Assembly (NCBI GenBank): GCA_964429815.1
Contig: CAYSCM010000001.1
Span: 1-64,000, forward strand
Direction of reading: 5' to 3'
DNA length: 64,000 bases
Source: an uncultured Candidatus Saccharibacteria bacterium
GTDB taxonomy: Bacteria; Patescibacteriota; Minisyncoccia; Phycocordibacterales; CAYSCM01
The notes beneath the pieces were generated by a model, which was not told where the DNA came from, ran no database searches, and saw nothing but the letters and a program-made list of their open reading frames with translations. The position numbers were made by a program, and so were the translations under genes. Shown here one piece after another: positions 32,269 to 53,724 of the stretch (positions are counted from its first letter, which is position 1; every line of letters starts with the position of its first letter).

Positions 32269-32440
32269 GCCCTTCTCCTTCTTTCGTGGCCAACTCATGG
32301 GGCCCCTCGCAGTTGTTCGGGTTTGAGACGTGCAAAATCCTGGGCCATACTACTTACCGCTTGTCAAATAGTCAACTCCCCGATCTATAAAAAGTTAAGA
32401 GCGGTCCGAAGACCGCTCTCGTAGGGCAGAAATCCGCAGG

Positions 32441-33028: not shown

Positions 33029-33160
33029 GGTCCCTCCTGTTTGTTTGTTGGCTACTGTTTGGCCGGACGCATTCTGACACATCCATTTTATTTGTCAATA
33101 TTCTTCCAGGCTGTCTGGCAATAGAAACCCGTGCTAAGCTTCGCGAGTAACAAACGCGCT

Positions 33161-33697: not shown

Positions 33698-33737
33698 CCC
33701 AGTGACCCTTTATATGCGTGGTATGGTTATCTCACCT

Positions 33738-38299: not shown

Positions 38300-38931
38300 G
38301 AGGCCGTCGGGATGGATTCCTTGTCGCGGTTTGAGAAAAACAGGTAGTCGACGATGGCGTGGAAGAAAACCGCGTGAAGCGCCTCAACGGGACCGTAGGC
38401 ACCTTTTCCTGTCTCAATGATTATCTTGTGGTGACAGAGGCTCTTCGCTTTGCCTCCGTCAAAACCAAGAACGCCTATCGCCGTGCCGCCCTTAGCGCAT
38501 ATGTACTCGATCGCGCGAAGCACATTGGGGGAATTGCCACTTGCGGAAATGACGATGAGCACATCGTCGGGACGAAAAATGTGCTTAAGCTGGTCCGCAA
38601 AAACGTTCTCGTAGCCGACATCGTTCCCGAGCGCCGTCACGGCGGCGATATTGTTGAGCGCGTGAATACGAAACGGCTTTTCTTCCGTACCACCCCCGTT
38701 CGTGGTGAGATCGGCCGCAAAGTGAGCCGCCATGGCAGCGCTCCCCCCGTTGCCGGCGATGTAGATCGTAGAGCCCCTCTCCCGGGCCTTTTGAAGCACG
38801 TCGATAATCTCCTCGACCGCTTTGGAATCTACGGCGGAAGCAAGCTCGAAGGCATGCGCAAGATACCCTTCCATAAATTCGGGTACCGATCCTTTTGTCT
38901 TTTGATAGATGGTATCGACGTGTCCTCTCAT
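38296..38931 (-). CDS. gmhA: SIS-domain phosphoheptose isomerase (GmhA-like)
   Basis: 211 aa; IYIAGNGGSAAMAAHFAADL, VLIVISASGNSPNVL. Confidence 0.75.
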   Translation of the reverse strand: MRGHVDTIYQKTKGSVPEFMEGYLAHAFELASAVDSKAVEEIIDVLQKARERGSTIYIAGNGGSAAMAAHFAADLTTNGGGTEEKPFRIHALNNIAAVTALGNDVGYENVFADQLKHIFRPDDVLIVISASGNSPNVLRAIEYICAKGGTAIGVLGFDGGKAKSLCHHKIIIETGKGAYGPVEALHAVFFHAIVDYLFFSNRDKESIPTAS

Positions 38932-39932
38932 AGCGTTGTGAGCACCCCGCGGATGAGCTTCCCTTCCTCGAGGTCTTTGAGGGCGGCTCCTATCTCGTCG
39001 AAGGAATACTCTTTCGTAAGTAACTTATCCAAGCACATGACCTTCGGGTTTTCAACGTATTCACGCGCGTAGCGAGGAATGTCGCGGTCGAGCTCGCTCT
39101 CTCCGCCCCAGGTGCCGTAAAGCTTTTTGCCCTTGATGAGCCCGAAAGGGTTGATCGATATGGTTTCCCCGGGCGCAAGGTTTCCTGCAATAACGACGGT
39201 CCCGGCGTCCTTGACCGCGCGGTAGGCGCTCTCCATGGCGCCCTTGTTTCCCGAACACTCGACGGCCACATCGAAATCCTTTCCCTGAAACTCTTCGGCA
39301 GAGATCGCTTCATCGACGCCGAGCTCCTTTTTCGCATGCGCGAGCTTCCACGGAACGACGTCGATCGCGGTAACGTGAGCACCCTTCATGACGGCTCGAA
39401 TGAGTGCACTCGCTCCGATCCCCCCGATGCCGAATATAACCACTCGTTTGCCGTTGAGGTCTCCTAGGCGGTCGATGATACCCATGCCGGTCGGCACCGC
39501 GCACCCAAGAAGTGCCGCAATCGCGGGCTCCACCCCTTTTGACACCTTGGTGACACGATTCTCTGAGACGACCGCAAGCTCGGTAAACGTCGCCACGGAG
39601 CCACCGTTTACCTTCCCTTCTTTGCTTTGATACGTCGGCACCGGAGCGGATATACCCTCTCCAAGGATCCAACTTGCAACCACATAATCTCCGCTCCTTA
39701 CTTTCTGCACGCCTTCTCCGGCCGCGACCACCTCCGCTGCGGCTTCATGTCCCAATAAGTGGGGAATATATTCCGCTCCTTTCCTGCCGCGGATTTCATT
39801 GAGTTGGCTGTGGCAAAGTCCTGTCGCTAGCACTTTAATAAGTACCTGCCCCTTTTGAAGGGAGGGAACCTCAAGCTCCTCGATGGAGAGCGGTCCACCG
39901 ACGACGCGGAGTACTGCAGCGCGCGTTTTCAT
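38928..39932 (-). CDS. Zinc-binding alcohol dehydrogenase family (MDR) oxidoreductase
   Basis: GLCHSQLNEIRG...GHEAAAEVVAAGEGV; GxGxxG NAD site; start at MKTRAAVL. Confidence 0.85.
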   Translation of the reverse strand: MKTRAAVLRVVGGPLSIEELEVPSLQKGQVLIKVLATGLCHSQLNEIRGRKGAEYIPHLLGHEAAAEVVAAGEGVQKVRSGDYVVASWILGEGISAPVPTYQSKEGKVNGGSVATFTELAVVSENRVTKVSKGVEPAIAALLGCAVPTGMGIIDRLGDLNGKRVVIFGIGGIGASALIRAVMKGAHVTAIDVVPWKLAHAKKELGVDEAISAEEFQGKDFDVAVECSGNKGAMESAYRAVKDAGTVVIAGNLAPGETISINPFGLIKGKKLYGTWGGESELDRDIPRYAREYVENPKVMCLDKLLTKEYSFDEIGAALKDLEEGKLIRGVLTTL

Positions 39933-39933
39933 G

Positions 39934-40587
39934 CTAGGGGATAAACCAGTAGTAGTCACCCGTGTAGCCGACCTCGGCGAAGAGTTTTTTCCAATCATCG
40001 ACAGATAGGATGGTCTTTGCAGTAAGATTCCACTTCATCATGCGATCCTTCTCTTCTTCATGGTGGTAGGCGTCGACGGTAATGAACGAGTGTTTTCCTT
40101 TCACACGCTCAATCTCTCGAAGAGCCTCTTTACACTCAGGCAGTGGTAGGTTGTGAATGGTGTTAATCGAAATCACGAGATCGTAGGATTTATCCGCAAA
40201 TTGACTAAGATTTCTTGCATCTCCAACCGATACTGCGCCCGCAATTGAGGGCATGGCATTTTCGATAGCGTAGGAGGAAACATCAATACCGCGAACCACC
40301 ATGTGGGGAAGCCAATAGAGAAAATCATTAAGCATAAATCCCTTAGCACACCCGACATCAAGTACCGAAGAGTTGTTGTTGAGTCCGTAGTAATTTATGA
40401 AATCCCGAACCACCGGTACCCACCTCCCATCATAGCGGAAGCCGCCGTAGCCCTGATCCCTGGTGCCATCAAAAAACTCCCTGCCAAACTTTCGGGCAGT
40501 AGCAACATCCTCAGGAGACTTTTGTCCTCGAGCTTCAATGTTGCGTTTGGCTTTTGGATATTTCGAAAGAAGATCGATTTCTGCCAT
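39934..40587 (-). CDS. Class I SAM-dependent methyltransferase
   Basis: VLDVGCAKGFMLN, DLVISINTIHNL. Confidence 0.75.
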   Translation of the reverse strand: MAEIDLLSKYPKAKRNIEARGQKSPEDVATARKFGREFFDGTRDQGYGGFRYDGRWVPVVRDFINYYGLNNNSSVLDVGCAKGFMLNDFLYWLPHMVVRGIDVSSYAIENAMPSIAGAVSVGDARNLSQFADKSYDLVISINTIHNLPLPECKEALREIERVKGKHSFITVDAYHHEEEKDRMMKWNLTAKTILSVDDWKKLFAEVGYTGDYYWFIP

Positions 40588-40596: not shown

Positions 40597-42366
40597 TTAT
40601 TTTTTTTCGGGAAGAAGCTTAACCATCATGTTGTCATTGAACTCTTTTCTTGCAAGTAGCGGCTCGGGATCCTCGAGCGGCCGACCGAACTTTACCTGCG
40701 GGATTACGCGGTGCTTCGGGTTAATCTCGATGTTACAAAACACAGGCCCCCTCATCGCGAGCACCTTCTTAACTCCCCCGCTCAACTCGCGGTTCTTCTT
40801 GATCGTAATGGTTTTGAAGCCAAAGGAGGAAGCAATTTTGGCAAAGTCTGGGAACGCAAGTCCTCCCCCTTCCGAAGACGCAAGATACGCCGAATTAAAC
40901 CACTGATCTTGAGTCTGCTGTATCATACTGTAGCCGTGGTTATTCAATACAAAAATCTTGATCGGAAGTTTGTGCTTGAGAAGGGTACTTAACTCTTGCA
41001 AATTCATTTGGAGTGAACCATCTCCGGTTACACAAATAATTGATTTCTTGTTAAGCGCCAGGCTTACCCCAATGCTCGCCGGCAAAGCCCACCCCATCGC
41101 GGTGTTGTTCCAATCGTGGTAAAGACGCTGACCTTTCTTGAAGGAAAATCCCTGCATCATCCATGCGACCGTGCAGCCGGTATCAATGACCATTACTTCG
41201 TTCTGACGCGTGTAGCGAGAGAGCTCCTCAACAAATACATACGGATTGACCCCTTTCTCTTTGTAGTACGCGGGTGGGCACATGGGATATTTTTTCTTCC
41301 ATGCGGCAATACGTCTAAGCCAGGGTGAGATGTCGTTTTTTGGCAAACGTGCGGCGTGCTTTTGAAATGCCTTCAGCAGCTCTTTTGCGTCACCGGAGAT
41401 ACGCACATCGACTTTCAGGCCAAATTTTTTAAACTTCTTAAGTTCGTAGGGGTCAATATCGATGACTATCTTTTTTGCCTCTCGCGCAAACGTGTTGGGA
41501 GGACTACCCGTCGATTTGGTATCAAGACGGCTTCCGATTGAGAGGATCATGTCAGCGTTCTGGACGGCAAAATTGGCAAACCGCGTGCCGTGAGTGCCAA
41601 AGGTGCCGATGCGAAGTGGATGACTCTCTGGCAGGAGATCCCCTGCCCCCCATGTGAGTGCCGCAGGAAAGCCGAGTGTTTCCAAAAGTGAGATGGCCTC
41701 TTTTTCGGCCCCCGCGAGGTGGATTCCCCACCCAAACACAACGACGGGGCGCTTCGCCTGCCGTAGATAGTTTATGCTTCGAGCTACATCAACCGGCGCT
41801 TTCTTCTTCTCGACGGAGGGTGTAAACGAGGGAAGCTCTCCTGGATTAATTTCTCTGCGCTGAATGTCGTCGGGAATATCGAGCACTACGGGTCCTGGCC
41901 TACCACTTCGCGCCAGAAAGATCGCTTTCTCAAGCTCGTAGCGTATGCGCCTCTCATCGGTGATGAGTATCGCGTACTTAGTGATAGGACGATACATTTC
42001 GACCGTTGCCGTTTCTTGAAAACCCACTTGCCGCACGTTGGTATGACCTTTCATCCTAAAGGTGGCTACTTGGCCGGTAATAAATATGACGGGTACCGAA
42101 TCGTAGTAGGCGGAGCACACTCCCGTGATCATGTTCGTAGCACCTGGCCCTGAGGTGGACATCGCTACACCGAGGCCACCCGTGGCCCTCGCGTACCCGT
42201 CGGCAGCCATTGCCCCCGCTTGCTCGTGTCCTGGACAGATGACCTCCATTCCCCCCGTGCGCGCCACCGAATGAATAAGGTGAAGGGATGCTCCGCCGGA
42301 GATGGCAAAGACATGCTTCACCCCTTCTTTGCGGAGAACCTGTGCTACGTAGTCGGTGAGCTTCAT
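40597..42366 (-). CDS. Thiamine-pyrophosphate enzyme, acetolactate-synthase-large-subunit-like (YerE-type candidate)
   Basis: 589 aa; N-terminal Pyr domain, central domain, C-terminal PP domain GDGSLQMNLQELST. Confidence 0.88.
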   Translation of the reverse strand: MKLTDYVAQVLRKEGVKHVFAISGGASLHLIHSVARTGGMEVICPGHEQAGAMAADGYARATGGLGVAMSTSGPGATNMITGVCSAYYDSVPVIFITGQVATFRMKGHTNVRQVGFQETATVEMYRPITKYAILITDERRIRYELEKAIFLARSGRPGPVVLDIPDDIQRREINPGELPSFTPSVEKKKAPVDVARSINYLRQAKRPVVVFGWGIHLAGAEKEAISLLETLGFPAALTWGAGDLLPESHPLRIGTFGTHGTRFANFAVQNADMILSIGSRLDTKSTGSPPNTFAREAKKIVIDIDPYELKKFKKFGLKVDVRISGDAKELLKAFQKHAARLPKNDISPWLRRIAAWKKKYPMCPPAYYKEKGVNPYVFVEELSRYTRQNEVMVIDTGCTVAWMMQGFSFKKGQRLYHDWNNTAMGWALPASIGVSLALNKKSIICVTGDGSLQMNLQELSTLLKHKLPIKIFVLNNHGYSMIQQTQDQWFNSAYLASSEGGGLAFPDFAKIASSFGFKTITIKKNRELSGGVKKVLAMRGPVFCNIEINPKHRVIPQVKFGRPLEDPEPLLARKEFNDNMMVKLLPEKK

Positions 42367-42370
42367 GGCG

Positions 42371-43228
42371 CTACCAGGGCATCTGCTCCTTAACGCTTAT
42401 AAAGAGTGTCCCGTCACGGTAGCTCTCGGGCATATCGCCGGCTTTTGTGACAAGTCCCCACCCTATCTTCTGCGAGAACAAATTGACGCCGGAGCCTGTA
42501 AAGTGCTTGAAAATGTGCTTGGCATTCTCCGCGGTCCCAACCTCGACCAGGCCGTCACAGCTCTCCCAATCGGAAGCTTCGGTCGAGAGGAGTACTTCCT
42601 TCTCGTGCCCTTCGACGTCCATTTTGATGAGATCAGCGCCGGCGAGAATCGGCCCGAACGCTTCGAGCTCCACGGAGAACATTTCCCGATCCCCGTAGAC
42701 GTCGTGCTTTGCTCCCGAGAGGTGACTCCCCGTAGTGTTGCCGAGCACTCGGGTAAAATCTGCTGAACCCGAGCGACTTGAGACGGCGCTGTTGTGAAGG
42801 CTGGCAGAATTACATCCGTTACGCGCAAGATTTTTTTTGAGGATATCGAAATGAACCGGATCGGGCTCGTAGGAGGAAACCTTAAAACCACAACGACAAA
42901 GGATAATCGAGTGAAGTCCAATATTTGCTCCGAGGTCTACAACGCTCGTATAGCGATTGCGATTGCGCCAGTAAAAACTGAAAATAACGAGTTCATTGAG
43001 GTCAAAGAGATTCCGCGAATCGACATTACCCATGTTGTGGTATGGAAACGAGATATCTCCAAATGGCGGAAAGTGGACCGACTCTTTTGAATCAACGGGA
43101 AAGAGCCTCTCCACTTCCTTCCGAGCTTTGGCGGCACGTTCTTTGAATGGCGCGCTTGTCGGAGTATGAGAGGGTAATTCCTGCGGGAGCGTGGCAAAGA
43201 TATTCTCCAAAAAAGCCGAGGATTCCAT
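42371..43228 (-). CDS. FkbM-family methyltransferase
   Basis: VVDLGANIGLHS, IKMDVEGHEKEVL. Confidence 0.8.
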   Translation of the reverse strand: MESSAFLENIFATLPQELPSHTPTSAPFKERAAKARKEVERLFPVDSKESVHFPPFGDISFPYHNMGNVDSRNLFDLNELVIFSFYWRNRNRYTSVVDLGANIGLHSIILCRCGFKVSSYEPDPVHFDILKKNLARNGCNSASLHNSAVSSRSGSADFTRVLGNTTGSHLSGAKHDVYGDREMFSVELEAFGPILAGADLIKMDVEGHEKEVLLSTEASDWESCDGLVEVGTAENAKHIFKHFTGSGVNLFSQKIGWGLVTKAGDMPESYRDGTLFISVKEQMPW

Positions 43229-43244
43229 GACGGGAGATACCCTA

Positions 43245-44042
43245 TCAGATTTTTCGTAATTTTAATAGCTCGGGGTCACGCGCGAGCGTTTTTGAAAAGC
43301 GCGCGCTCCCCCACGCGTCATAGACAACGTGTACATCTCTTCCCCCGACTACCTTTTTTGCTGACCCAATGACCCAGTCGAGACAGTCGAGAACTCGCTC
43401 CATGGGTATAAAGTCCCCGCGCGCTAGCTTTTTCCTTGTTCGAGCATACGTATCGCCCGCGCGCCTGCCGGCGGTGATAGTCTCCTGATGGATTTTGCTG
43501 CGCACCCAACCGGGGCCTATGGTGACGAAGCGAGCATCGTTCAGCTCCGCGTCGAGGATTTCAAACATTTTTATGGTCGCTATCTTTGAAACGGTATACG
43601 CCGAGAAATTGCGTGGTGCGTTGTTCGTCCCCCCACCAGAAAATGAAATTATGCAGGGTTTTTTGGATTTCGAACGTCTGGGCAGAAGTCCGTGGATGAT
43701 GCCCATGTGAGAAAGAAAATTGAGGCGAATTGATTTTTCCCAGTCTCCGAAAGAAACGCGTTGAAAAGCTCCTATGGGCGTAAGGGTCGCCGGAGCCAGT
43801 ACAAGAACGTCCCAGGCCACCGCGAGGCTCCGCAACGTACGTAGCGCCCTATGTACAGAGGCAGGTCGAGCGACGTCACAGTGTATAAGGTGTGCGCCAA
43901 GTTTTTGCAATCCTTCTGTGGTGTGGCTGCCGGTTCTATACGTGCCGAAAACCGCCCAGCCGCGGTTTAAGTATCTTCGAGCTATGGCGGTGCCGATATC
44001 GCTTGAAATGCCGACGATGATTATTGAGCCAGTTTTTTTCAT
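43245..44042 (-). CDS. Short-chain dehydrogenase/reductase (SDR)
   Basis: IIIVGISSDIGTAIARRYLNRGWAV; YxxxK region. Confidence 0.8.
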   Translation of the reverse strand: MKKTGSIIIVGISSDIGTAIARRYLNRGWAVFGTYRTGSHTTEGLQKLGAHLIHCDVARPASVHRALRTLRSLAVAWDVLVLAPATLTPIGAFQRVSFGDWEKSIRLNFLSHMGIIHGLLPRRSKSKKPCIISFSGGGTNNAPRNFSAYTVSKIATIKMFEILDAELNDARFVTIGPGWVRSKIHQETITAGRRAGDTYARTRKKLARGDFIPMERVLDCLDWVIGSAKKVVGGRDVHVVYDAWGSARFSKTLARDPELLKLRKI

Positions 44043-44215
44043 GACGCGCTCTTTTGGTTGATGACGCTCGCGTTTTTCACGAATATGCCTATACTACACT
44101 ACTGCGCCACCGCAGGTTTCCAACCTACAAAACGCAGTGGAAAAGAAAAATTAATGGGTACGGTGAATTACAACGGGTCGAAACTTGACCCGTCTCTGGT
44201 AGAGTTGTACAGAAC

Positions 44216-45496
44216 ATGCGCCAAAAATTGAGCACCCTTGTCGAAAAACTGACGGTCGCGACCGGCATAAACTTTTCCTACCTCCTGCGCGGAGGGTCCT
44301 GGGCGTTTTCCGAGCAGGTGGTTACCAACGCCATCTCCCTCCTCCAGGCCATCGCGTTTGCCAACCTTATCTCTCCGCAGACGTATGGAGTGTTTAGTGT
44401 CGTGCAATCGTGGATAGGCATTCTCGTTACGTTCGCGCTCGGGAGCCTTCCAAACGCGCTTATAAAAAGCGTTGCGGAAGGCAACGACGGGGAGCTCAAA
44501 CGCGGATTTCTCCTCAAGCTTAAGTATGCTCCCCTTGCCTCTCTGCTCGGGCTCGGATTCTCCTTCTACTATCTATTTATAGGGAACAATACGACCCTCG
44601 CTTACTCGTTTCTCATTGCTTCGTTTTGCATGCCGCTTTACGTAGCGCTTCCGCAGGTCACGTTCTTCCTGTTCGCCAAGGGAGCATTTCTCGATAAGTT
44701 CATCGTGCAAGTGAGCGTTAGTCTTGCTTCGCTGGCAGGAATGACTATTTCAATGCTCTATTTCGGTTCTGTTCCATACCTGATGCTCGCCTACTTCATT
44801 CCACCGATCATCGTGAACGGCATCTTTTTTTGGCGCACGCTGCGCACCAAGGTTCATAATGCCAAGACCGGCGCGAACACGGAGCGGTTTGCGCTCCACC
44901 TTACGGGCATGAGTCTTCTTGGTTCGATAACCAAAAACATCGACCAACTCCTCATGTTCCACTTCAGCGGCGCAGTTCAGCTCGCGGTATATAAATTTGC
45001 CTTGATTCCCATACGAAAGCTGGAGACCTTTTTCCAGATCATCCTCGATCTGCTCCTCCCGCGATTTGCCAAGAGAGAGTACCGCGAGATTTACCAGGGG
45101 TTCGACAGAAAGCTCCTCCTTTCAGGCGCTTTTTCGTTGACGGTCGTGGCTGTTTATTTTTTCAGCATCCCCTACCTCTACAAGCTCTTTTTCCCGAAAT
45201 ACACCGACGCGGTGATATACTCGCGACTCCTTTCCCTGCTGTTTTTGTTTGGCCCTCTCTCATACGTTCAGCAGCTTTGGCTTGCGAAGGCGGAAACTAA
45301 ACGTCTCTATTTTTTAAAAATTCTCGGTGATTCCACCCGGATCTCACTTCATGTCGCGCTTATTCCCGTATTTGGGATCGCCGGTGCAGTGGGAAGCCGG
45401 ATGGTCGCATCCTCCTTTGTCAGCACCGCGGCATTCATTTTATTTTTGAAGGATAGGAGACGGTACGGTAAAGGCTCGAAGCGCCAATCGCAGTAA
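44216..45496 (+). CDS. Polysaccharide biosynthesis protein / Wzx-like oligosaccharide flippase (MOP superfamily)
   Basis: 426 aa, about 12 TM helices. Confidence 0.8.
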   Translation: MRQKLSTLVEKLTVATGINFSYLLRGGSWAFSEQVVTNAISLLQAIAFANLISPQTYGVFSVVQSWIGILVTFALGSLPNALIKSVAEGNDGELKRGFLLKLKYAPLASLLGLGFSFYYLFIGNNTTLAYSFLIASFCMPLYVALPQVTFFLFAKGAFLDKFIVQVSVSLASLAGMTISMLYFGSVPYLMLAYFIPPIIVNGIFFWRTLRTKVHNAKTGANTERFALHLTGMSLLGSITKNIDQLLMFHFSGAVQLAVYKFALIPIRKLETFFQIILDLLLPRFAKREYREIYQGFDRKLLLSGAFSLTVVAVYFFSIPYLYKLFFPKYTDAVIYSRLLSLLFLFGPLSYVQQLWLAKAETKRLYFLKILGDSTRISLHVALIPVFGIAGAVGSRMVASSFVSTAAFILFLKDRRRYGKGSKRQSQ

Positions 45497-45508
45497 AAAA
45501 CCTTACTA

Positions 45509-46732
45509 TCACGCGCTCCCGCGGGGAGCGAGGGTGTGCGGCCAGGTAAGTACGCCAAGATCTGCCTCCTCGATGTTCTCTTTCCATTTTCGCATATCCG
45601 AAACCGAGATAAGATGTGCAAATTCCTTTTTCAGGGTTTCGAGTGTTTCCTGTTCCCAGGAAACTTTCTGAAATGCTTGTCGTTGCCACGGAAACGAGTC
45701 ACCTTCCTTGAGCCAGCTGTAGTTGTTGGCGACGTCGGGCATCACGAAACTGGACGCAAAGTACGCTATATCATCCCGCAAAAAGGCCCACGAGAGAGGG
45801 CCACTCGAGACGCACAGGTAAAAGAGCGCGCGCTGTACTAGGGCTAGATCCTGCTCGCTGTTCGTCCCATAGTCTTTGGTAAAGATAACGTTTGGCCCGC
45901 GCAGCGCTTCATTGATCTCGGCTCCCCTGCCTAAAATAATGAAGGTGCACTCGGGATACTGCTTCGAACAGTACCTAAAAAATTCTCGCCAGACTTTCGG
46001 TTTAGCGTTTCGGTGCGAGGCAAAAAAGGGATTGCTGCGCAGGCTGACCGCTACGGCGTATCCAGGCGCATGTTTTTTGATAAATGCTCGTGCCCACGCA
46101 TCAGTGAGGGCGGGTATCTTCAGCTTCGGTAGAGATCCGTACCGCTCGTAGAATTCCTTGAAAAACAAGTAGCCACGACGGTAGGGAGAATTGCTATTTA
46201 CGTAGTCAAAAAGAGATGGGGTGAGGATATACTTTCCCCGGCGCTCAGCGAGAAAAGACTCGAATTCATCCCTGGAATCGAAAATGTGGACCGACCCCAA
46301 CTTTGGATTGGTACGCAAAACAGGAAAAATCTCAATGAAGTGGAGCGGGACATTTTCTTTGGTGATCCAACCCGCATATTTAGAATGTCGACTAGGTCTT
46401 TCTCTGTCGTATACAAAAGCGTAGTCGATCTTTTCAACTTCATGGATGTGGGCCTCGCATAGCGTCCTGATCTGGTGCTCGATCAGTATCCCAAATGAGA
46501 CATCGGTGGTGAGAAAATCATTAATGCCCAGAATCCTTCGATCATTTCGCTCGTGGCGACGCAGAACGTAGCGGGCATAGCGCATCGAACCAACAATGCC
46601 TCGACGATACCAACGTTCATACACGCGATACGTCAAAAAATTGACTGCGACATCAAAGGCGGGTACCAAAAAGGGGGGCAGCATTTTTCGAAAATGCACA
46701 ACCGCAGGTTTCTTGTTGAGTGCGCGCAACAT
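45509..46732 (-). CDS. Hypothetical protein (possible glycosyltransferase-like)
   Basis: 407 aa; no confident motif. Confidence 0.45.
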   Translation of the reverse strand: MLRALNKKPAVVHFRKMLPPFLVPAFDVAVNFLTYRVYERWYRRGIVGSMRYARYVLRRHERNDRRILGINDFLTTDVSFGILIEHQIRTLCEAHIHEVEKIDYAFVYDRERPSRHSKYAGWITKENVPLHFIEIFPVLRTNPKLGSVHIFDSRDEFESFLAERRGKYILTPSLFDYVNSNSPYRRGYLFFKEFYERYGSLPKLKIPALTDAWARAFIKKHAPGYAVAVSLRSNPFFASHRNAKPKVWREFFRYCSKQYPECTFIILGRGAEINEALRGPNVIFTKDYGTNSEQDLALVQRALFYLCVSSGPLSWAFLRDDIAYFASSFVMPDVANNYSWLKEGDSFPWQRQAFQKVSWEQETLETLKKEFAHLISVSDMRKWKENIEEADLGVLTWPHTLAPRGSA

Positions 46733-46733
46733 G

Positions 46734-47231
46734 TTAGCGTCGGTAGGTTGAATTTTTTTTGATTGCCGTAATGATATCGCGTGTGCTTAATTTTTTGTCT
46801 TTCGTAAAGGTAATCCTGCAACCCACCTTCTGAGCGCTTTGTATTTCCTCTGCGAAATCTTTATTCGGCGGGATACCGCGGTAATCGGGACCGCGCACAT
46901 ACAGGTCCGGCTTGAGAGCACGTATGAATCTTGATCCATTGTTAGCATCATTAATGAACACGAAATCAACCGGGCGAAGCTGCGAGAGCATGTAGGCCCG
47001 CATATGCTCGGTGAACACCGGGCGGCCGATACCTTTTTGTCTTCGTACCTGTTTATCACTTGCGATCGCAACCACGAGCACATCACAGAGGCGCTTTGCG
47101 GATTCAAAATGCATCGCATGCCCGGGGTGGAGCAGATCATAGTTGCCGTTACAAAAACCGATGATCTTCCCCTCCTTTTTACGTCGAGCAAGTATGGGAC
47201 GAAGCTGCTGAAAGGAGATGATGCGTGCCAT
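46734..47231 (-). CDS. Cytidylyltransferase-like nucleotidyltransferase (heptose-1-P adenylyltransferase / RfaE domain II-like), second copy
   Basis: IIGFCNGNYDLLHPGHAMHFESAKRL, ASDKQVRRQKGIGRP. Confidence 0.7.
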   Translation of the reverse strand: MARIISFQQLRPILARRKKEGKIIGFCNGNYDLLHPGHAMHFESAKRLCDVLVVAIASDKQVRRQKGIGRPVFTEHMRAYMLSQLRPVDFVFINDANNGSRFIRALKPDLYVRGPDYRGIPPNKDFAEEIQSAQKVGCRITFTKDKKLSTRDIITAIKKNSTYRR

Positions 47232-47233
47232 AG

Positions 47234-48238
47234 CTACGGCTGATGGATATACTCGCGTGGATACTTTTTAAGTACATCCCACGACTCAGTGAGCCAAGAG
47301 ATAACTTCCTCAACCCCTCGCTCGAGCGGAATGCGCGGTTTCCACCCAAGAGCCTTCGCGGTCCCTCCAAACGAAAGCGCATAGACCTTATCCTGTCCAG
47401 GACGACCTTCACTCACTTTGGCGACTTCATTGAAACGAACCCCCATCTTGCGACACACGAGCTCAACGACGCCTCGAATGGAGCTCTGAGTGTGTGTCGA
47501 AAAATGATACACGCCACCAGACTTCCCTTTCTGGATCACGAGCTCAATACCGCGACATACATCCTCGATGTGTATGAAGCTACGCTTGATGGTGCCCCCT
47601 TGGTGAAGCGAGAGTTTAGTACCAACAAGGACCGAGAGGACCGTTTTTGGGATTACTTTGAAGAGCTGCTGATGCGCTCCATAGACATTCGCCGAGCGCA
47701 CAAAGCACACCGGAAAACCCTTGGTCTTATGGAGCGCGATGAGGAAGAGATCCCCTGCTCCCTTTGAGGCGGCGTAGGGCGTCGTCGGATTAAAGTAGGT
47801 AAGCGTCTCGGGGCCGCTGTATGAACCGTAAATTTCCGGCGTCGATATTTGTATGTACTTTTTTAAATAGGCCGTGTCTTTGAGGTGATCCGCGAGAGCA
47901 ACAATACCCAAGCAGTTGGTTCTAAACCAATCAAGCGGTTTTTTCCAACTAGCCTCAACGATGCCTTGGGCCGCGAAATTCACGACTATGTCAGGACGCT
48001 CGCTATCAAGGAGAGCGGCAAGTTTTTTTACATCTTTGTTTACGTCGAGCTTATGGAAACGATAGCGGCGCGCGGAGGGTTTTTTCCCTTTGTAGAGGTA
48101 GGGCAAAAATTCAGGCTCCTTCTCAGATGAGCGACTAATACCGATGACTATGTAATTTGTTTTCCGAAGCAGGTAATCGACGAGGTGTCCTCCCGAAAAA
48201 GAATTACTCCCGATGATAGCTATTTTTTTCAGAGCCAT
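47234..48238 (-). CDS. NDP-sugar 4,6-dehydratase (RfbB/extended SDR)
   Basis: KKIAIIGSNSFSGGHLVDYLL, YAASKGAGD. Confidence 0.85.
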   Translation of the reverse strand: MALKKIAIIGSNSFSGGHLVDYLLRKTNYIVIGISRSSEKEPEFLPYLYKGKKPSARRYRFHKLDVNKDVKKLAALLDSERPDIVVNFAAQGIVEASWKKPLDWFRTNCLGIVALADHLKDTAYLKKYIQISTPEIYGSYSGPETLTYFNPTTPYAASKGAGDLFLIALHKTKGFPVCFVRSANVYGAHQQLFKVIPKTVLSVLVGTKLSLHQGGTIKRSFIHIEDVCRGIELVIQKGKSGGVYHFSTHTQSSIRGVVELVCRKMGVRFNEVAKVSEGRPGQDKVYALSFGGTAKALGWKPRIPLERGVEEVISWLTESWDVLKKYPREYIHQP

Positions 48239-48249
48239 GTGAGCAAAGT

Positions 48250-49317
48250 TTAAAACGGACCGGTAAAACGCTTATCGGGCACATCGAGCGGCGTCGTGCG
48301 TTTCTTCTCTTCCGCTGCGACGAGCGACTCTAATTTTTTTGTATCCCCCTCAACCATAGAGACCACCATTCTGGCCATATCGATATAGCGCGGGTAGTAC
48401 TCATTGGCAAGCGCAGGCGTTGATGGGCTTGGCAGATCCGGCGCGGTAAGCCGGCGAGGGTTGGTCCGTAGACTGATTGTCGAATCCTCCGCGACTTGTG
48501 TGATTATCTCTCCCGCGACCCCGAAGCTGCGATGCCCGAGATCGGCCACAAGCAGCCGTCCTGTTTTTTTGACTGAGCGTGCTATTGTCTCGGTATCAAG
48601 AGGTTTAAGACTTCGCACATCGACGACCTCGGCGCTCACGCCAACCTTTTGGAGTAACTCCTGCGCACGCAGAGCCTCGTAGGTGAAGTAGGACGTTGTT
48701 ACAAGGGAAACATCGCTTCCCCGGCGCATTATACGAGCCTTGCCGATGGGCACCCTATAGTGACCCTCGGGAACATCTTCAGCAAGATCATGGAGCCATC
48801 GATGATCGATATATATGACCGGATTATCGTCCTCAATCGCGGCGAGCATCAGTCCCTTGGCATCGGAGGGGGTCGCGGGCATCACTACCTTGAGCCCGGG
48901 GATGTGCGCATAGAGGGCTTGGAGATTTTGTGAATGCTGCGGGCCCTGCCCCCATCCCATGCCGATGGTCATTTTCACCGTAAGGGGTACCGATTGCGCT
49001 CCGTTGTACATGTACGACCATTTCGCCGCATTGTTGATCACCTGCTCGATCGCAAGAAGGCTGAAGTCAACTCTCTGGTGCGTTAGGACTGGGCGCATCC
49101 CATTTACCGCCGCACCGATGCAGATCCCGGTTACCGCGAGCTCAGAAGTTGGCATATCAAGTACTCGTTTTGCGCCATGTTTTTTCTGAAGTCCCGTCGT
49201 CGTGCCAAAAATTCCCTTTGGATCAGGGACACCCAATCCTATAAGGAACACCGACTTGTCTTTAGCCAGAGCAAGATCAAATGCTTCTCGTATTGCTTGC
49301 GAATATGTTTTACGCAT
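48250..49317 (-). CDS. TPP-dependent dehydrogenase E1 component beta subunit (transketolase-like C-terminal)
   Basis: VLDMPTSELAVTGICIGAAVNGMRPV; start at MRKTYSQ; 8-nt overlap with the alpha subunit. Confidence 0.85.
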   Translation of the reverse strand: MRKTYSQAIREAFDLALAKDKSVFLIGLGVPDPKGIFGTTTGLQKKHGAKRVLDMPTSELAVTGICIGAAVNGMRPVLTHQRVDFSLLAIEQVINNAAKWSYMYNGAQSVPLTVKMTIGMGWGQGPQHSQNLQALYAHIPGLKVVMPATPSDAKGLMLAAIEDDNPVIYIDHRWLHDLAEDVPEGHYRVPIGKARIMRRGSDVSLVTTSYFTYEALRAQELLQKVGVSAEVVDVRSLKPLDTETIARSVKKTGRLLVADLGHRSFGVAGEIITQVAEDSTISLRTNPRRLTAPDLPSPSTPALANEYYPRYIDMARMVVSMVEGDTKKLESLVAAEEKKRTTPLDVPDKRFTGPF

Positions 49318-50269
49318 AGAGGTGTTCGGCAAGAGCTTCCCTCTTTGGAAACGGGCTCTTTTCGGCAAAACGGAATGCTCCATCAACCTGTCGAATCGCA
49401 TCGTTTCGGATTTTTTCGATGAGGTCGCTAGAAAGCACCTCTTTCTTCAGGAGCTCACGCTCGAACATCGCGACAGGATCCTTCTTCTTCCACACGGCAA
49501 CCTCCTTCGGATCACGGTACCCAAGCTCGTCATCAAAATTTGGGCCGCAGTGCTCACGGTAGCGGTAGGTCGAAAATTCCAAAAAAACTGGACCCGAACG
49601 GACGGCTTTTCTGGCTTTTGTTGCGGCAGCGAGAACGGTCGAAACATCGTTACCATCGTGGCGCGACGCAGGAATGCCGTGCCCTTTGGCAAGCGCGTAG
49701 ATGGGGCGTTTAGGTTGGCGCTCAGAGAGATGTGTGTACACCGAGAAGCGGTTATCTTCGCACACAAATACAATGGGTAGTTTGTGGAGCGCCGCAAAAT
49801 TGAGACTTTCATGGAAAGCCCCCTCCTCGACGGTACCATCCCCAAAAAACGAAACGATGACGCGGTTTTCCTTCCGGAGCTTCGCTGCAAACGCCGCTCC
49901 CGTTGCAATCGGAATGCTGTTGCCGACGATGGGTGTGGCCCCGCCAAAACCGGCCTTGAGATCAATGAGGTGCATGGAGCCGCCCTTGCCACCGCAGCAG
50001 CCCGTAGCTTTGCCATAGAGCTCAGCCATCATCGCATTGAGGTTGCCGCCTTTAGCGAGGTAATGAGCGTGACAGCGATGGGTACTATACACGAGATCCT
50101 CTGCCGTGAGCGCCGCGCACACCCCAACCGCAACGGCCTCTTGGCCGATCGAGAGGTGGACGGGACAGCGCATCTTTCCTTCGCTATAGCGACGAGCTAT
50201 CGTCTCTTCCGTCGTGCGTATGAGAATGAGCTTGCGGTAGAGCGATAGGAGTGCTTCATTTTTCTTCAT
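49310..50269 (-). CDS. TPP-dependent dehydrogenase E1 component alpha subunit
   Basis: CGGKGGSMHL, TPP-binding GDGTVEEG. Confidence 0.85.
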   Translation of the reverse strand: MKKNEALLSLYRKLILIRTTEETIARRYSEGKMRCPVHLSIGQEAVAVGVCAALTAEDLVYSTHRCHAHYLAKGGNLNAMMAELYGKATGCCGGKGGSMHLIDLKAGFGGATPIVGNSIPIATGAAFAAKLRKENRVIVSFFGDGTVEEGAFHESLNFAALHKLPIVFVCEDNRFSVYTHLSERQPKRPIYALAKGHGIPASRHDGNDVSTVLAAATKARKAVRSGPVFLEFSTYRYREHCGPNFDDELGYRDPKEVAVWKKKDPVAMFERELLKKEVLSSDLIEKIRNDAIRQVDGAFRFAEKSPFPKREALAEHLYA

Positions 50270-50270: not shown

Positions 50271-51248
50271 CTACGTAAGCCCTAGCTTCTGCATCATCTT
50301 GACGTTGTGGTAGAGAGGATTGTTGAGACCGTCTGTTATGTCGCCCCGTTCGTATGCTGCCTTTATAGAGCGCACTGCCTCGGGGATATCAAACTGGGCC
50401 TTAAAGCCGAGTACACGCTCTATCTTGTCGGCATTGAGCTTGTAGGAGCGGTTATCGACGATCGAAGCCGATACCTTGATCGAAACTGCGGGGTCGTTGA
50501 GAACATCCTTGATGAGTTTCCCCGTATCGAGCACCGAAATATTCCAGAACCCGGTATTGAAGACTTCGCGATGAATTTTCTCCTGCGGAGCTGCGAGGAG
50601 CGTCTCGTAAATACGCACCATGTCGCGGATATTTATATGGGGTCGCAACTGGCTCCCGCCGAAGATGGTTATTTTCTTGTTTACGAGCGCATGCATGGTA
50701 AGTAAGTTCACGGTGAGGTCAAGTCGCAAACGCGTCGCGTAACCACACACCGTGCCCGGACGCACCGTCACGTAGTTGAGGTTGGTACCCTCAAGAACCT
50801 TTTCACACTCGAGCTTGTACTTGCCGTAATCCGTGATCGGCCTTCCCACCCTCTCCTCGGTCACTTCCCCCTCTTGGATACCATAGGTGCTCGCGGAGCT
50901 TGCGTAGATAAACCGACCGATGTCGTTTTCCTTCGCCGCATCGATGACGTTGAAGAACGCGTCGTAGTTGATCGATTTCCCGAGCGTTGGGTCGAGCTCG
51001 AAGCTCGGGTCGTTCGACACGCACGCAAGGTGAATGAGGGAATCGCAGCCTTTGGCCGACTCGATTAACTTTTTTCGGTCACGGATATCTCCCCGGATCT
51101 CAGTGAGGTTTTTCTGCTTGATGCCGGAAAAAACATCGCCGTAGAGATAGAGGTCGTACACAACGACGCTATGGCCCGCTTCGAGAAGTTTCGGAACGAG
51201 AGCGCTGCCGACGTATCCCGCTCCGCCTGTGATGAAGATCTTGGTCAT
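50271..51248 (-). CDS. NAD-dependent epimerase/dehydratase
   Basis: KIFITGGAGYVGSALVPKLLEAGHSVVVYD. Confidence 0.85.
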   Translation of the reverse strand: MTKIFITGGAGYVGSALVPKLLEAGHSVVVYDLYLYGDVFSGIKQKNLTEIRGDIRDRKKLIESAKGCDSLIHLACVSNDPSFELDPTLGKSINYDAFFNVIDAAKENDIGRFIYASSASTYGIQEGEVTEERVGRPITDYGKYKLECEKVLEGTNLNYVTVRPGTVCGYATRLRLDLTVNLLTMHALVNKKITIFGGSQLRPHINIRDMVRIYETLLAAPQEKIHREVFNTGFWNISVLDTGKLIKDVLNDPAVSIKVSASIVDNRSYKLNADKIERVLGFKAQFDIPEAVRSIKAAYERGDITDGLNNPLYHNVKMMQKLGLT

Positions 51249-51250: not shown

Positions 51251-52309
51251 TTATGCGAGAAGTTCGCTTATAAAATCTTTGAGTTCCGCTTTCTTGATAG
51301 GTCTCTTATTGCCCACTATGCCTATCGCAAGTGCTCCGACTGCATTGCCGATAAAGCCGACCACGTCGAGCGGCACCCGGTTATGTACCAACGGGGCCGT
51401 CAGGGCCAGGAAAGCATCTCCCGCCCCCATTCGGTCGGTAAACGAGCTCCTCATCGTGGGGGCGTTCGTGATCTTCCCCCGATTATATAGGTAACAACCC
51501 ATGGGCCCTCCGGTCACAATGAAGTTTTTGTACCGGAGCTTGGTGGCGACGTTTCGCATGACGCTTATTAGGTCGTGATTGCGCTCGCGCGCCTCGAGCC
51601 GGAGCTCTCGCTCATCGGCGCAAACATAGTCGGCTTTTGGAAATACCGAAAGGGTATGAAACCCCATATTACCCGCGTTCGCCTGGGCCGTAAGGGCCAA
51701 AAAGGGTGAACGCTGCATAAGCTCCTTACGGCTCGCCCGGTCGAGCATGCCGTGCCCGAAATCACCGCAGATGACCAGATCGTGGGACTTGAAGAGCTTG
51801 CGAAGTGTCCGGACGACCTCCGCGCTCTCGCTTGCGCTCGGAGACTTGTCGCTCATAACGTAAAACTCGAGGAGTTTCTGAAGCGGTACCTCTTCCATAA
51901 ACCGCTTCTTCATGATGGTGGGAGCGCTCTTTTTGTAGAAAAAGACTGGCTTGACGTTTTTCGGGAGCGAGCGGCGAACGAATGCTTCTTGGGAATTTTC
52001 CTCGCCGAGCATGGCAAAAAGCGTCACCTCCTTGCAAAAGCTCGCGAGATGGTTGGCGATGGCGATGGACCCTCCGGCGTAGAGCTCTTTTTTTATTTCT
52101 TTGAGCGCGACGATGGGTTCCTTAGCGGACTTTCCAATGGACCTTCCGAACGTATATTCGTCGAGAATAGCCTCGCCCACCACGAGGACTCGCGTGTCTT
52201 TCATCGCTTCGAGCACATCAAAAAGGTACTCTTTCGAATACCTCTTCTTGAAACGCATCAGGTACGAATTCCAGTCGGTGCTAAGATTCTCTTTCATGGA
52301 TTCCGACAT
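51251..52309 (-). CDS. PfkB-family sugar kinase (heptose-7-phosphate kinase / RfaE domain I-like)
   Basis: Start at MSESMKEN (cat 52307-52309); VLVVGEAILDEY, C-terminal GAGDAF. Confidence 0.8.
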   Translation of the reverse strand: MSESMKENLSTDWNSYLMRFKKRYSKEYLFDVLEAMKDTRVLVVGEAILDEYTFGRSIGKSAKEPIVALKEIKKELYAGGSIAIANHLASFCKEVTLFAMLGEENSQEAFVRRSLPKNVKPVFFYKKSAPTIMKKRFMEEVPLQKLLEFYVMSDKSPSASESAEVVRTLRKLFKSHDLVICGDFGHGMLDRASRKELMQRSPFLALTAQANAGNMGFHTLSVFPKADYVCADERELRLEARERNHDLISVMRNVATKLRYKNFIVTGGPMGCYLYNRGKITNAPTMRSSFTDRMGAGDAFLALTAPLVHNRVPLDVVGFIGNAVGALAIGIVGNKRPIKKAELKDFISELLA

Positions 52310-52353: not shown

Positions 52354-53724
52354 CTAGGAAATAAAACTGAGCACAGCGGAAGCGATGTGAGAGGCCGACA
52401 TTCCGTCGAATTTCCAGCAGTAGCGATCTTTGAAAACTTTGCGCCGGTCGCTGTGAATCTCGGGGTGCGCAAGGTAGATGTTGATCCATTTCGCAAGTTC
52501 TCCCTTGGAGCCCACGAGAGCGGTCGAGCCGATGGAGAGCCAGGAAACTTGATTTTCCTCCAATCTCCAGCGCCTCACGAGGCTGCGCAGGAACGGTACC
52601 TTTGTTTCCCACCCGTCGAAATTGATGGTGATGAGCGGTTTATCGAAAATAGAAGAATCGATGATGATGGAAGAGATGGTATTGATGACCAGCGAGCTCC
52701 AGTAGAGTGAATCGTAAATGTGTTGAAAGAAGCTCATGTCGAGTTCCCCCTCTCGCTTGTCACGCTCAAGGTCATTGAGCTTGGCGGGGCCTGGAATATC
52801 AATAATAAAGTGCTCGTCTGGTGTGAATTTGGAGAGGTCGACGGGGAGGAACGGGTGGAGCCGAACCAAAATTTGCAAATCGTCGGGGATTTTCTTCTCC
52901 GCAAAGAGGTCTTTGAGGATCTGGCAGGTCTGCCAGTCGGTGTCGATGAAAAAATGTCCGGCGGGCGCGAAGAGGACGAGGCGTTTCTTCGGGTCAGCGC
53001 CGATTTTCTTAAAAAATTCTTCACGCGGGGTCGGCTGCATGGTGAGGTACTTTTCAAACTGCGGGACACCTGATAGCACGATCGTGGTCTCTTTGATGTG
53101 GTGGTAGCGCACCATATCCTCTTTCATGACCTCGTTATGGACGATGAGCCGATCCGGCACGAAGCGAGCATAGCTACGGGACGTCGTATTGTCCCACGAA
53201 CGCACCATCGCGACCGTTCTCACCCCGCGTGCTTTGGCATTTTTGAGAAGGAAGAGGTCCGAGTGATTAAAAAGGTCGGTCGCGAACACGACGCTGGGCC
53301 GATATGTCTCAACATATCGATTGAACGTGTCCTGATTATTGAGCCTATAGTCGAGAAAACGCAGGAATTTCTTGACTGGCGTGATCGGAGCGAACAGGGC
53401 CGTGAAGAGAAGCGACGTATAGTACTTCGGCCAGTTACCCGTCTTCGTCCGCGCCTCGAGTTTATGGATCCACATGACGTTCGTGTCGAGGAGCCACTCG
53501 GCCAGTCTTTGGAACAGCCGGTTGCGGAAACTGGTTACGTTCTTTCCAAGTTCCACCCCCTCGACAATGACGCCCGGGTAGCGTATTTTAAAATATTCCT
53601 CCTGGGGTTTTGCAACAAAAAGGACGACCCGCGCCTCCTTGGTGAGAAGATCGAGCACTCCCGTGTTGAGGATATTTTTTGTTATAAACGGATGAAAATC
53701 CGTAATGAAAACCGTCGGCTTCAT
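52354..53724 (-). CDS. CDP-glycerol glycerophosphotransferase (TagB/TagF) family
   Basis: 456 aa; Glyphos_transf-like C-terminal region. Confidence 0.6.
   Translation of the reverse strand: MKPTVFITDFHPFITKNILNTGVLDLLTKEARVVLFVAKPQEEYFKIRYPGVIVEGVELGKNVTSFRNRLFQRLAEWLLDTNVMWIHKLEARTKTGNWPKYYTSLLFTALFAPITPVKKFLRFLDYRLNNQDTFNRYVETYRPSVVFATDLFNHSDLFLLKNAKARGVRTVAMVRSWDNTTSRSYARFVPDRLIVHNEVMKEDMVRYHHIKETTIVLSGVPQFEKYLTMQPTPREEFFKKIGADPKKRLVLFAPAGHFFIDTDWQTCQILKDLFAEKKIPDDLQILVRLHPFLPVDLSKFTPDEHFIIDIPGPAKLNDLERDKREGELDMSFFQHIYDSLYWSSLVINTISSIIIDSSIFDKPLITINFDGWETKVPFLRSLVRRWRLEENQVSWLSIGSTALVGSKGELAKWINIYLAHPEIHSDRRKVFKDRYCWKFDGMSASHIASAVLSFIS

Follow-up and report, generated by a model that had tools for sequence, protein, structure and literature searches.

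A candidate gene cassette for a carbon-branched higher sugar, with two TPP-dependent enzymes and heptose-like activation genes, in a Patescibacteria glycan locus

RESULTS AND DISCUSSION

Described sugar-branching enzymes and nucleotide-heptose pathways

YerE-like carboligases, which include YpYerE of the yersiniose A pathway, PpYerE, ErwE, and JanthE, are TPP enzymes, and two of them, JanthE and PpYerE, accept ketones (PMC12188165, PMC12247030). E1 alpha/beta pairs have been established as another class of TPP enzymes that branch sugars (PMC12247030, section 2.2). These alpha-KADH2 pairs, found in actinomycete secondary metabolism (aldgamycin, kibdelomycin [KbDH], avilamycin, and paulomycin), move a C2 unit onto a keto sugar, with pyruvate as the donor (PMC12247030, PMC4753412). 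Nucleotide-activated heptoses are represented by the GmhA/HldE ADP-heptose pathway and by the GDP-heptose modification of Campylobacter, in which a 4,6-dehydratase is paired with the C4-dehydrogenase Cj1427, and keto-heptose-forming steps have been described (PMC10680097). Here we compare these systems with a locus in a 64,000-nucleotide stretch of DNA (the window) from a CPR/Patescibacteria bacterium with a tiny genome.

Organization of the locus

All of the genes named in a previous sequence-only reading of this DNA (the ALS-like, E1, methyltransferase, SDR, and Zn-ADH set) are present on the minus strand. Their grouping is far beyond chance, and an equivalent neighborhood is seen in dozens of other genomes. 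Domain calls bore out the flanking of the ALS-like TPP gene (positions 40597 to 42366; 589 amino acids [aa]; TPP_enzyme_N, M, and C, with E values of 1e-34 to 1e-39) by two methyltransferase genes, an SDR gene, and a Zn-ADH gene. The methyltransferases are an FkbM-family protein (42371 to 43228; PF05050; TIGR01444, 78 bits against a cut-off of 38) and a class I SAM methyltransferase (39934 to 40587; Methyltransf_31/25/11), the latter presumably a functional partner of the ALS-like enzyme. The classical SDR (43245 to 44042; adh_short) is a proposed branch ketoreductase. The Zn-dependent MDR alcohol dehydrogenase (38928 to 39932, with the start as given by the gene call; ADH_N and ADH_zinc_N) is a proposed side-chain ketoreductase whose nearest solved structures are class III ADHs, and its gene falls just beyond the range (40597 to 50269) to which the set had been assigned.

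These genes had been described as co-operonic, but they do not form one operon, because a plus-strand gene for a Wzx-type flippase (44216 to 45496; Polysacc_synt, E = 1e-16) and a 173-bp divergent intergenic region separate two minus-strand units. The first unit (44042 to 37391) encodes the SDR, the FkbM protein, the ALS-like protein, the class I methyltransferase, the Zn-ADH, a SIS-domain isomerase, and a sulfotransferase. The second (56669 to 45509) starts with a GT1 gene and ends with genes for a PfkB-family kinase, a second SDR, E1 alpha, E1 beta, a dehydratase-like SDR, a nucleotidyltransferase, and a 407-aa protein (orf407). The flippase gene breaks up the cassette but is not conserved as part of it; among the related loci compared, a homologue lies close to the cassette in L044 only. 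Three TPP-dependent enzymes had been counted, whereas there are two, because E1 alpha (49310 to 50269, minus strand; E1_dh, E = 3e-68) and E1 beta (48250 to 49317, minus strand; PF02779 [Transket_pyr] and PF02780 [Transketolase_C]) are subunits of a single enzyme. On our preferred reading, the region holds both halves of a cassette of about 11 genes.

Relationships of the two TPP enzymes

The ALS-like protein shares with the YerE-like carboligases a three-domain ALS/POX-type architecture, the GDG...NN cofactor motif, and the catalytic Glu. In its family, whose members are 50 to 69% identical across phyla, GDG is found in 75 of 80 members and H47-E48-Q49 (HEQ, with the catalytic Glu) is invariant. 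The nearest solved structures are JanthE (8rph) and PpYerE (5ahk). A profile of the family scored 451 bits against JanthE, 389 against PpYerE, 366 against plant AHAS, and 354 against Escherichia coli AHAS I; JanthE leads AHAS clearly, PpYerE by a small margin. As expected of YerE-like genes, the ALS-like gene adjoins genes for NDP-keto-sugar-forming enzymes and a branch ketoreductase; like yerE/yerF and erwE/erwF, it is part of a glycan locus and has keto-sugar-forming SDRs and ketoreductases as neighbors (PMC9306805). We therefore propose that the protein is a YerE/JanthE-type carboligase, which is predicted to transfer an acyl group to the ketone of an NDP-keto sugar.

There are also differences from described YerE-like systems. 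The ALS-like family forms a separate tight clade, since the 50 to 69% identity among its members contrasts with a far weaker single-sequence match to JanthE (373 bits), and the GDG motif of the family is replaced by CDG in JanthE. Unlike in YerE-like systems, there is no CDP-3,6-dideoxyhexose pathway alongside the gene, which is instead paired with E1 alpha/beta, heptose-type activation genes, and two methyltransferases, and its product is sometimes fused to one of the cassette methyltransferases.

E1 alpha and E1 beta are separate proteins with the TPP motif and catalytic residues intact. E1 alpha (54 to 67% identity among family members) has the GDG...N motif and the His of YRYREH, and E1 beta keeps the catalytic Glu and the equivalent of His128, with a C terminus that is about 30 to 40 aa longer than that of the Geobacillus E1 beta. 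Like the alpha-KADH2 enzymes, this is a two-subunit PDH-E1-type pair with no E2 or E3 partner nearby, and it adjoins genes for an NDP-sugar 4,6-dehydratase-like protein and a ketoreductase. The likeness is one of architecture and context. The pairs here come from surface-glycan loci of uncultured bacteria and archaea rather than from actinomycete secondary metabolism. Unlike alpha-KADH2, the cassette E1 also has a YerE-like enzyme and heptose-type activation genes as partners.

The window proteins also share folds, cofactor motifs, and catalytic residues with AHAS and with the E1 of PDH and acetoin dehydrogenase. In NCBIfam they match acetolactate synthase and PDH E1 best, and the E1 catalytic residues, including the His pair, are kept, as they would be if AHAS and a pyruvate or acetoin dehydrogenase E1 of ordinary primary metabolism had come to lie in a glycan locus by chance. 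We consider this highly improbable. All three TPP proteins fall under the curated cut-offs for AHAS and PDH E1 (ALS-like protein, TIGR00118, 449 bits against 538; E1 alpha, TIGR03182, 326 against 394; E1 beta, NF006667, 280 against 321), in agreement with the biosynthetic rather than catabolic role suggested earlier. Neither the window nor the related loci with full annotation contained genes for E2, E3, ilvN (the regulatory subunit), ilvC, or ilvD, and E2, E3, and ilv genes were also absent among the recurrent flanking families of related loci. The conserved neighbors are sugar enzymes, and this synteny across phyla contradicts a primary metabolic role; the preference of the ALS-family profile for YerE-like structures also speaks against it.

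Sugar activation and keto-forming genes

Hexose or yersiniose chemistry had been envisaged for this locus. We found no genes for a glucose-1-phosphate nucleotidyltransferase or a 3-dehydrase, and the window contains neither an NTP_transferase nor a 3-dehydrase/reductase pair that could supply yersiniose A; for the CDP-glucose dehydratase of that pathway, the CDP_4_6_dhtase score was 84 bits, far short of the cut-off of 278. The cassette instead contains, on the minus strand, genes for a GmhA-like SIS-domain isomerase, a paralogue of sedoheptulose-7-phosphate isomerase (38296 to 38931; PF13580, E = 5e-16); a PfkB-family sugar kinase resembling HldE domain I (51251 to 52297; PfkB, GAGD motif); and a nucleotidyltransferase resembling HldE domain II (46734 to 47231; CTP_transf_like, HPGH motif). 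The top matches of these three proteins are always heptose-enzyme families, although all scores are far under the family cut-offs (gmhA, 95 bits against 209; rfaE_dom_I, 102 against 345; rfaE_dom_II, 112 against 181). The presence of GmhA-like and HldE-like genes points to a heptose, which on these subthreshold best matches is probably the kind of sugar that is activated. In contrast to the nucleotide-heptose pathways, the window's cassette has no GmhB-type phosphatase (other HAD genes occur elsewhere in the window, and a small HAD gene lies near the cassette in L050 only), and the HldE domain order is reversed in cassette fusions, with the nucleotidyltransferase preceding the kinase. That all of the cassette enzymes score under the cut-offs of their housekeeping namesakes marks them as specialized paralogues.

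The gene next to the E1 pair had been called an NDP-hexose 4,6-dehydratase. An RmlB-like extended SDR does adjoin E1 (47234 to 48238, minus strand; GDP_Man_Dehyd, E = 3e-46), but it departs from that enzyme: it scores 189 bits against the TIGR01181 cut-off of 365 and, with T-P-E in place of T-D-E, is without the Asp of the RmlB Asp-Glu dyad. YxxxK is present, and the motif [ST][ST]PEVYG is family wide (42 of 44 members). The Glu that is kept may permit dehydratase chemistry of the GMD (T-S-E) kind, and we regard the protein as a probable variant-type NDP-sugar 4,6-dehydratase. The second extended SDR (50271 to 51248, minus strand; Epimerase, E = 1e-35) has SSASTYG and YxxxK motifs and no catalytic Glu and is a proposed NDP-sugar C4 oxidoreductase or epimerase. 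Its nearest solved structure is 6vo6 (126 bits), which we take to be Cj1427. The pairing of a dehydratase-like SDR with a Glu-less SDR is reminiscent of the keto-heptose formation described in PMC10680097, although the cassette dehydratase is RmlB-like with T-P-E and not GMD-like.

Conservation across genomes and alternative pathways

The comparison covered 81 loci related to the ALS-like gene from more than 25 phyla, including archaea, and the carriers of the cassette include CPR bacteria, methanogens, and cyanobacteria, as well as Pseudocolwellia agarivorans QM50. A gene was scored as co-occurring when it lay within 10 kb of the ALS-like gene, and many of these loci are cut by contig ends. 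By this measure, the class I methyltransferase was found in 61 of the 81 loci, E1 beta and the classical SDR in 60 each, E1 alpha in 54, the dehydratase-like SDR in 52, FkbM in 48, the second SDR in 47, the Zn-ADH in 45, PfkB in 36, and SIS in 33. The usual gene order is SIS-DH-kinase/NT-SDR-(MT)-E1a-E1b-SDR-FkbM-ALS-MT-ZnADH, where NT and MT denote the nucleotidyltransferase and methyltransferase. Several members are fused in other genomes: NT::PfkB in 29 related loci, SDR::FkbM in L024 and L025, ALS::MT in P0029 (844 aa) and P0047 (825 aa), and also E1a::E1b. We found no published description of the cassette in the literature.

Two independent TPP systems had been suggested earlier, and a similar reading would have a shared NDP-keto-sugar precursor split between two separate branched sugars, with the E1 pair producing a C2-branched sugar and the YerE-like enzyme, together with the SDR, FkbM, class I methyltransferase, and Zn-ADH, another acyl-branched one. 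The two keto-forming SDRs, two reductases, and two methyltransferases could indeed serve two branches, and each module occurs alone in some genomes. Mini-cassettes (L083 to L086) contain the E1 pair, SIS, an HldE-like gene, and an SDR without ALS, and ALS occurs without E1 in L052, L063, L072, L078, and L082, with SDR and FkbM or, as in L052, with the dehydratase-like SDR. Pairwise identities correlate only moderately between ALS and E1b (0.45, compared with 0.89 between E1a and E1b), which weakens the case for a single linear pathway, and the separation of the modules in a minority of genomes makes some independence possible. Even so, we judge two separate sugars unlikely, as both TPP enzymes are colocated in a fixed order with a single sugar-activation module in 54 to 60 of the 81 loci. 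Furthermore, the two keto-forming SDRs coevolve tightly as a pair (r = 0.87) instead of each following its own TPP enzyme, and the second SDR was seen only in E1-containing loci (28 with E1, 0 without).

The mini-cassettes, in which the E1 pair is tightly linked to SIS and HldE-like genes, also bear on a different role for E1. It might act ahead of activation, like a transketolase or DXS, and build an unusual ketose phosphate for subsequent activation by the GmhA-like isomerase, kinase, and nucleotidyltransferase, by analogy with the lincosamide octose route, while the YerE-like enzyme alone would branch the sugar. A split transketolase takes the place of the E1 pair in Methanoregula (L050), and the isomerase and kinase of the cassette have diverged from their housekeeping counterparts GmhA and HldE; both observations fit this scheme. 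PDH-type E1 enzymes, however, use 2-oxo acids, and by established chemistry pyruvate would be expected to give a 1-deoxy-ketose, beyond the reach of an aldose-ketose isomerase. A keto-forming NDP-sugar SDR always accompanies the E1 pair, and the characterized E1 pairs of sugar pathways branch keto sugars (PMC12247030), which makes preactivation synthesis quite improbable.

Proposed pathway

On balance, we favor the view that these genes form one modular, horizontally spread cassette of about 11 genes that makes an NDP-activated, carbon-branched, methylated higher sugar for a surface glycan. What the enzymes act on, the sequence of reactions, and the end product are inferred as follows. The GmhA-like isomerase, the PfkB kinase, and the small nucleotidyltransferase would convert a ketoheptose phosphate to an NDP-heptose, on which the RmlB-like SDR and the coevolving Glu-less SDR would form one or more ring keto groups, for example, in a 4-keto-6-deoxyheptose. 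E1 alpha/beta would then decarboxylate pyruvate and add the C2 acyl anion to the sugar ketone, as E1 pairs of antibiotic pathways do, and the YerE/JanthE-like enzyme would carry out a second carboligation with a 2-oxo acid as the donor; the acceptor would be another ketone on the ring or the ketone of the branch just installed. The classical SDR and the Zn-ADH could reduce both branch ketones, and the FkbM and class I methyltransferases could methylate the product or a donor.

Such a product might belong to an undescribed class of monosaccharides, heptose derived, with two TPP-installed branches or extensions plus methyl groups (roughly C11 to C14), on cell surfaces in more than 25 phyla. This is a tentative idea about which we remain more doubtful than confident; if true, it would be the first pathway in which E1-type and YerE-type carboligases act on the same sugar.

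The finished sugar would be taken up by the glycosyltransferases of the surrounding CPR glycan locus. One of these may be encoded by orf407 (45509 to 46732, minus strand), which has no family match in Pfam or NCBIfam. Homologues of orf407 are encoded close to the cassette in L002, L044, L060, and L069, and its similarity to the TIGR04372 glycosyltransferase that flanks other cassettes is marginal (E = 0.025). The surrounding glycan locus is highly decorated, with sulfation genes among its members.

Gene layout and host

The window is a piece of bacterial chromosome in which housekeeping genes (GatB, Obg, and SecA) are followed by a glycan locus that starts at ~18.7 kb and continues past the window's right end. 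Among the best 120 matches to SecA (15552-18077), the named ones, at 67 to 71% identity, belong to CPR/Patescibacteria (Paceibacterota, Kaiserbacteria, Parcubacteria, and Taylorbacteria) with the exception of candidate division KSB1, which places the window in a CPR bacterium with a reduced genome. Its source contig spans 501,704 bp, so devoting >45 kb to a glycan locus represents a heavy investment for a genome of this kind (perhaps 1 Mb).

Pfam domains confirmed every gene named in the sequence-only reading, all on the minus strand, with gene starts following an independent annotation of an identical contig. The acetolactate synthase (ALS)-like protein (40597-42366, 589 aa) has all three TPP-enzyme domains; genes for an FkbM methyltransferase and a classical SDR lie upstream, and those for a class I methyltransferase, a Zn-ADH, and a SIS protein (GmhA-like isomerase) lie downstream. 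E1 alpha (49310-50269) and E1 beta (48250-49317) are flanked by an RmlB-like SDR, a second extended SDR, a small cytidylyltransferase-like protein, and a PfkB kinase. Three TPP enzymes had been claimed, but E1 alpha and beta are one enzyme. The cassette genes are tightly packed, with overlaps or gaps of only a few bases; nevertheless, they are not co-operonic as had been proposed, since they are divided between two transcription units by the plus-strand flippase gene Wzx (44216-45496) and a divergent spacer of 173 bp. A promoter and terminator scan was uninformative, finding fewer sites than in shuffled sequences.

Conservation of the cassette

Scanning the ALS-like family alignment against one genome per species yielded 80 loci (48 to 67% identity) from >25 phyla; archaea and Prochlorococcus are represented, as are a few cultured strains. 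Among the cultured carriers are Pseudocolwellia agarivorans QM50, whose 13-gene cassette is complete (L079, NZ_MUZU01000004.1, ~151-163 kb), and Phormidium sp. FACHB-1136 (L076). Window proteins were then compared with six-frame ORFs of the loci. Partners within 10 kb of the ALS-like gene, counted over 81 loci of which many are cut by contig ends, were the class I methyltransferase (61 loci), E1 beta and the classical SDR (60 each), E1 alpha (54), the dehydratase-like SDR (52), FkbM (48), the second SDR (47), Zn-ADH (45), PfkB (36), and SIS (33). Gene order is mostly kept among loci, and a TIGR04372 glycosyltransferase frequently flanks the cassette. In the window, the cassette is interrupted simply by Wzx and by orf407, a 407-aa protein (45509-46732, minus strand) whose single-sequence AF2 model (pLDDT 38) was unusable. 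Neither is conserved with the cassette, and the same applies to the sulfotransferases and the TagF-like and DegT genes.

Several partners are also fused. The nucleotidyltransferase is joined to the kinase in 29 loci, and SDR-FkbM, ALS-methyltransferase, and E1 alpha-beta fusions occur as well. An apparent fusion of the dehydratase-like SDR to E1 alpha in one locus (L039) was discarded because the first 81 E1 alpha residues are missing, which makes a truncation or assembly artifact probable; a genuine fusion would have linked E1 straight to the dehydratase.

Relationship to primary metabolism and to YerE

Every scored protein matched its housekeeping namesake best yet fell below the curated score: AHAS for the ALS-like protein (449 versus a cutoff of 538), PDH E1 alpha (326 versus 394), E1 beta (280 versus 321), RmlB for the RmlB-like SDR (189 versus 365), GmhA for the SIS protein (95 versus 209), HldE kinase for the PfkB protein (102 versus 345), and HldE nucleotidyltransferase (112 versus 181). 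Catalytic motifs are intact. The E2/E3 and ilvC/ilvD partners whose presence would have pointed to catabolism or branched-chain amino acid synthesis were sought together with ilvN; none occurs among the scanned window ORFs (a set covering most ORFs of ≥150 aa), in those related loci that are fully annotated, or among gene families recurring beside the cassette. The catabolic or ilv reading was dropped on the sub-cutoff scores and synteny, and ordinary primary metabolism (AHAS, PDH/acetoin E1) is effectively excluded.

Relatives of the ALS-like protein form a tight family (59 to 69% identity among the best 120 matches, from Elusimicrobia, Pirellulales, Nitrospirota, Chlamydiae, and CPR bacteria), some with a fused class I methyltransferase. 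We compared the protein with all solved structures, both as a family profile and as a single sequence. The profile scored highest against JanthE (8rph; 451 bits) and PpYerE (5ahk; 389 bits), compared with 366 bits for plant AHAS and 354 bits for E. coli AHAS I. At the family level, this supports the proposed YerE-type assignment, while the yersiniose pathway itself is absent. JanthE has been described as YerE-like, joining 2-oxo acids to ketones, with its natural substrates unknown (PMC12188165); YerE and ErwE branch CDP-3,6-dideoxy-4-keto-glucose (PMC9306805, PMC12247030).

Modularity of the two TPP enzymes

Each TPP enzyme also occurs separately. In four loci (L083-L086; Nitrosomonadaceae-labelled and other MAGs), the E1 pair lies within LPS core/O-antigen loci without the ALS-like gene, in a smaller, likewise conserved set comprising radical-SAM/SPASM, SDR, SIS, HldE-like, E1 alpha, E1 beta, a 111- to 128-aa ORF, and radical-SAM. 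Conversely, locus L052 has the ALS-like gene with a dehydratase-like SDR, reductases, and methyltransferases and without E1. Correlations of pairwise identity are 0.89 between E1 alpha and beta and 0.87 between the two extended SDRs, compared with 0.45 between ALS and E1 beta. The cassette is thus modular: the two TPP enzymes usually occur together, and neither depends on the other in every genome. At the usual E1 alpha/beta position, a Methanoregula MAG (L050, 3131-4886) carries a transketolase split into a Transketolase_N subunit and a Transket_pyr/Transketolase_C subunit, apparently as a non-orthologous replacement. A small GmhB-like HAD gene (9959-10519) follows it.

Sugar identity and proposed route

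The first match of the kinase, nucleotidyltransferase, and isomerase is always a heptose enzyme, fused homologues included, and the domain order of the fused nucleotidyltransferase-kinase homologues is opposite to that of HldE. In some loci, a sugar-1-phosphate nucleotidyltransferase is added or substituted. The RmlB-like SDR has a T-P-E motif throughout its family, with Glu kept and Asp lost; in the second SDR, the corresponding motif is S-S-x-S, as in GalE, and lacks Glu. The best solved relative of the second SDR is 6vo6, which we tentatively take to be the GDP-heptose C4-dehydrogenase Cj1427. The chemistry of that enzyme has been described (PMC10680097). Judging from these matches and motifs, the acceptor is therefore most likely a heptose that is oxidized or dehydrated to a keto sugar.

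We propose that activation would yield an NDP-heptose, from which the two coevolving SDRs would form the keto sugar. E1 alpha/beta would then add a C2 unit in the manner known from antibiotic sugars (PMC12247030, PMC4753412); that E1 instead acts before activation, building the ketose, seems rather improbable. On the route through an activated keto-heptose, the YerE-like enzyme would perform a second carboligation. The alternative that one precursor gives rise to two separate branched sugars is unlikely, if somewhat less so. After both carboligations on a single sugar, the SDR and Zn-ADH may reduce the branch ketones, and the FkbM and class I methyltransferases may methylate the product.

TPP-dependent sugar branching has been described for a few O-antigens (YerE type) and for antibiotics (E1 type). 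To our knowledge, each of these cases involves one enzyme class only, acting on a deoxyhexose, whereas here both classes share one conserved cassette with heptose-type activation genes. Literature searches on the cassette, branched heptoses, and aurantose returned nothing specific. Krug et al. 2024, reportedly an in silico survey of YerE-like and E1-type clusters, may list members of this family. Both enzyme classes and their chemistry are already known; as far as the literature searched shows, their joint conserved use with heptose-type activation, the breadth of its distribution, and the predicted product are new. The spread of the cassette, mostly through uncultured lineages, implies a widespread surface sugar that is chemically still unseen, and its enzymes are candidate biocatalysts for tertiary alcohols.

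Neighboring glycan genes

The glycan locus includes a fused ATP sulfurylase/APS kinase for PAPS supply (20931-22757) and two sulfotransferases (37391-38299 and 61070-61924), one of them sharing 4 bp with the last gene of the cassette operon; together, these genes suggest that the glycan is sulfated. A NeuB-type synthase, two CMP-sugar synthetases (one PseF-like), KdsC-like HAD phosphatases, two D-2-hydroxyacid dehydrogenases, and a cupin (25207-34454) point to a separate ulosonic-acid route; NeuB/CMP-transferase genes lie near the cassette in only ~5 of the 81 loci (L002, L030, L044, L050, and L069). Overall, the glycan appears sulfated, branched, and ulosonic acid containing, and such elaboration bears on host attachment by CPR episymbionts.

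A TylC3-type sugar C-methyltransferase (61975-63243, plus strand), found near the cassette in seven loci, adjoins a dehydratase with a strong GDP_Man_Dehyd/RmlB-type match (63247-63999, minus strand) that extends beyond the window's right end; together, they would make up a third route in the locus, leading to a methyl-branched deoxysugar. The gene at 34565-36307 (plus strand) encodes a B12-binding radical-SAM methyltransferase-like protein of 580 aa, relatives of which lie in or beside the cassette in ~15 loci (e.g., L002, L016, L022, and L030).

A TagF-like glycerophosphotransferase (52354-53724) shows weak similarity to the Tannerella BFO_1060 transferase family. Its gene shows translational coupling with those for a DegT aminotransferase and a methyltransferase, and only L044, the most closely related locus, shares it. 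For this neighbor, both a phosphonate (PEP mutase/Ppd) and a CDP-alditol/teichoic reading were rejected: PEP mutase is absent, and neither TagF nor DegT is conserved alongside the cassette.

At the window's left end, which it overruns, one uninterrupted reading frame of at least 2066 codons (2-6199, minus strand) is built of ~171-bp (57-aa) repeats, with a GC content of 60 to 67%, strong GC skew, and 66 N-x-S/T sequons. The product resembles a giant repetitive surface protein, which could itself be glycosylated.
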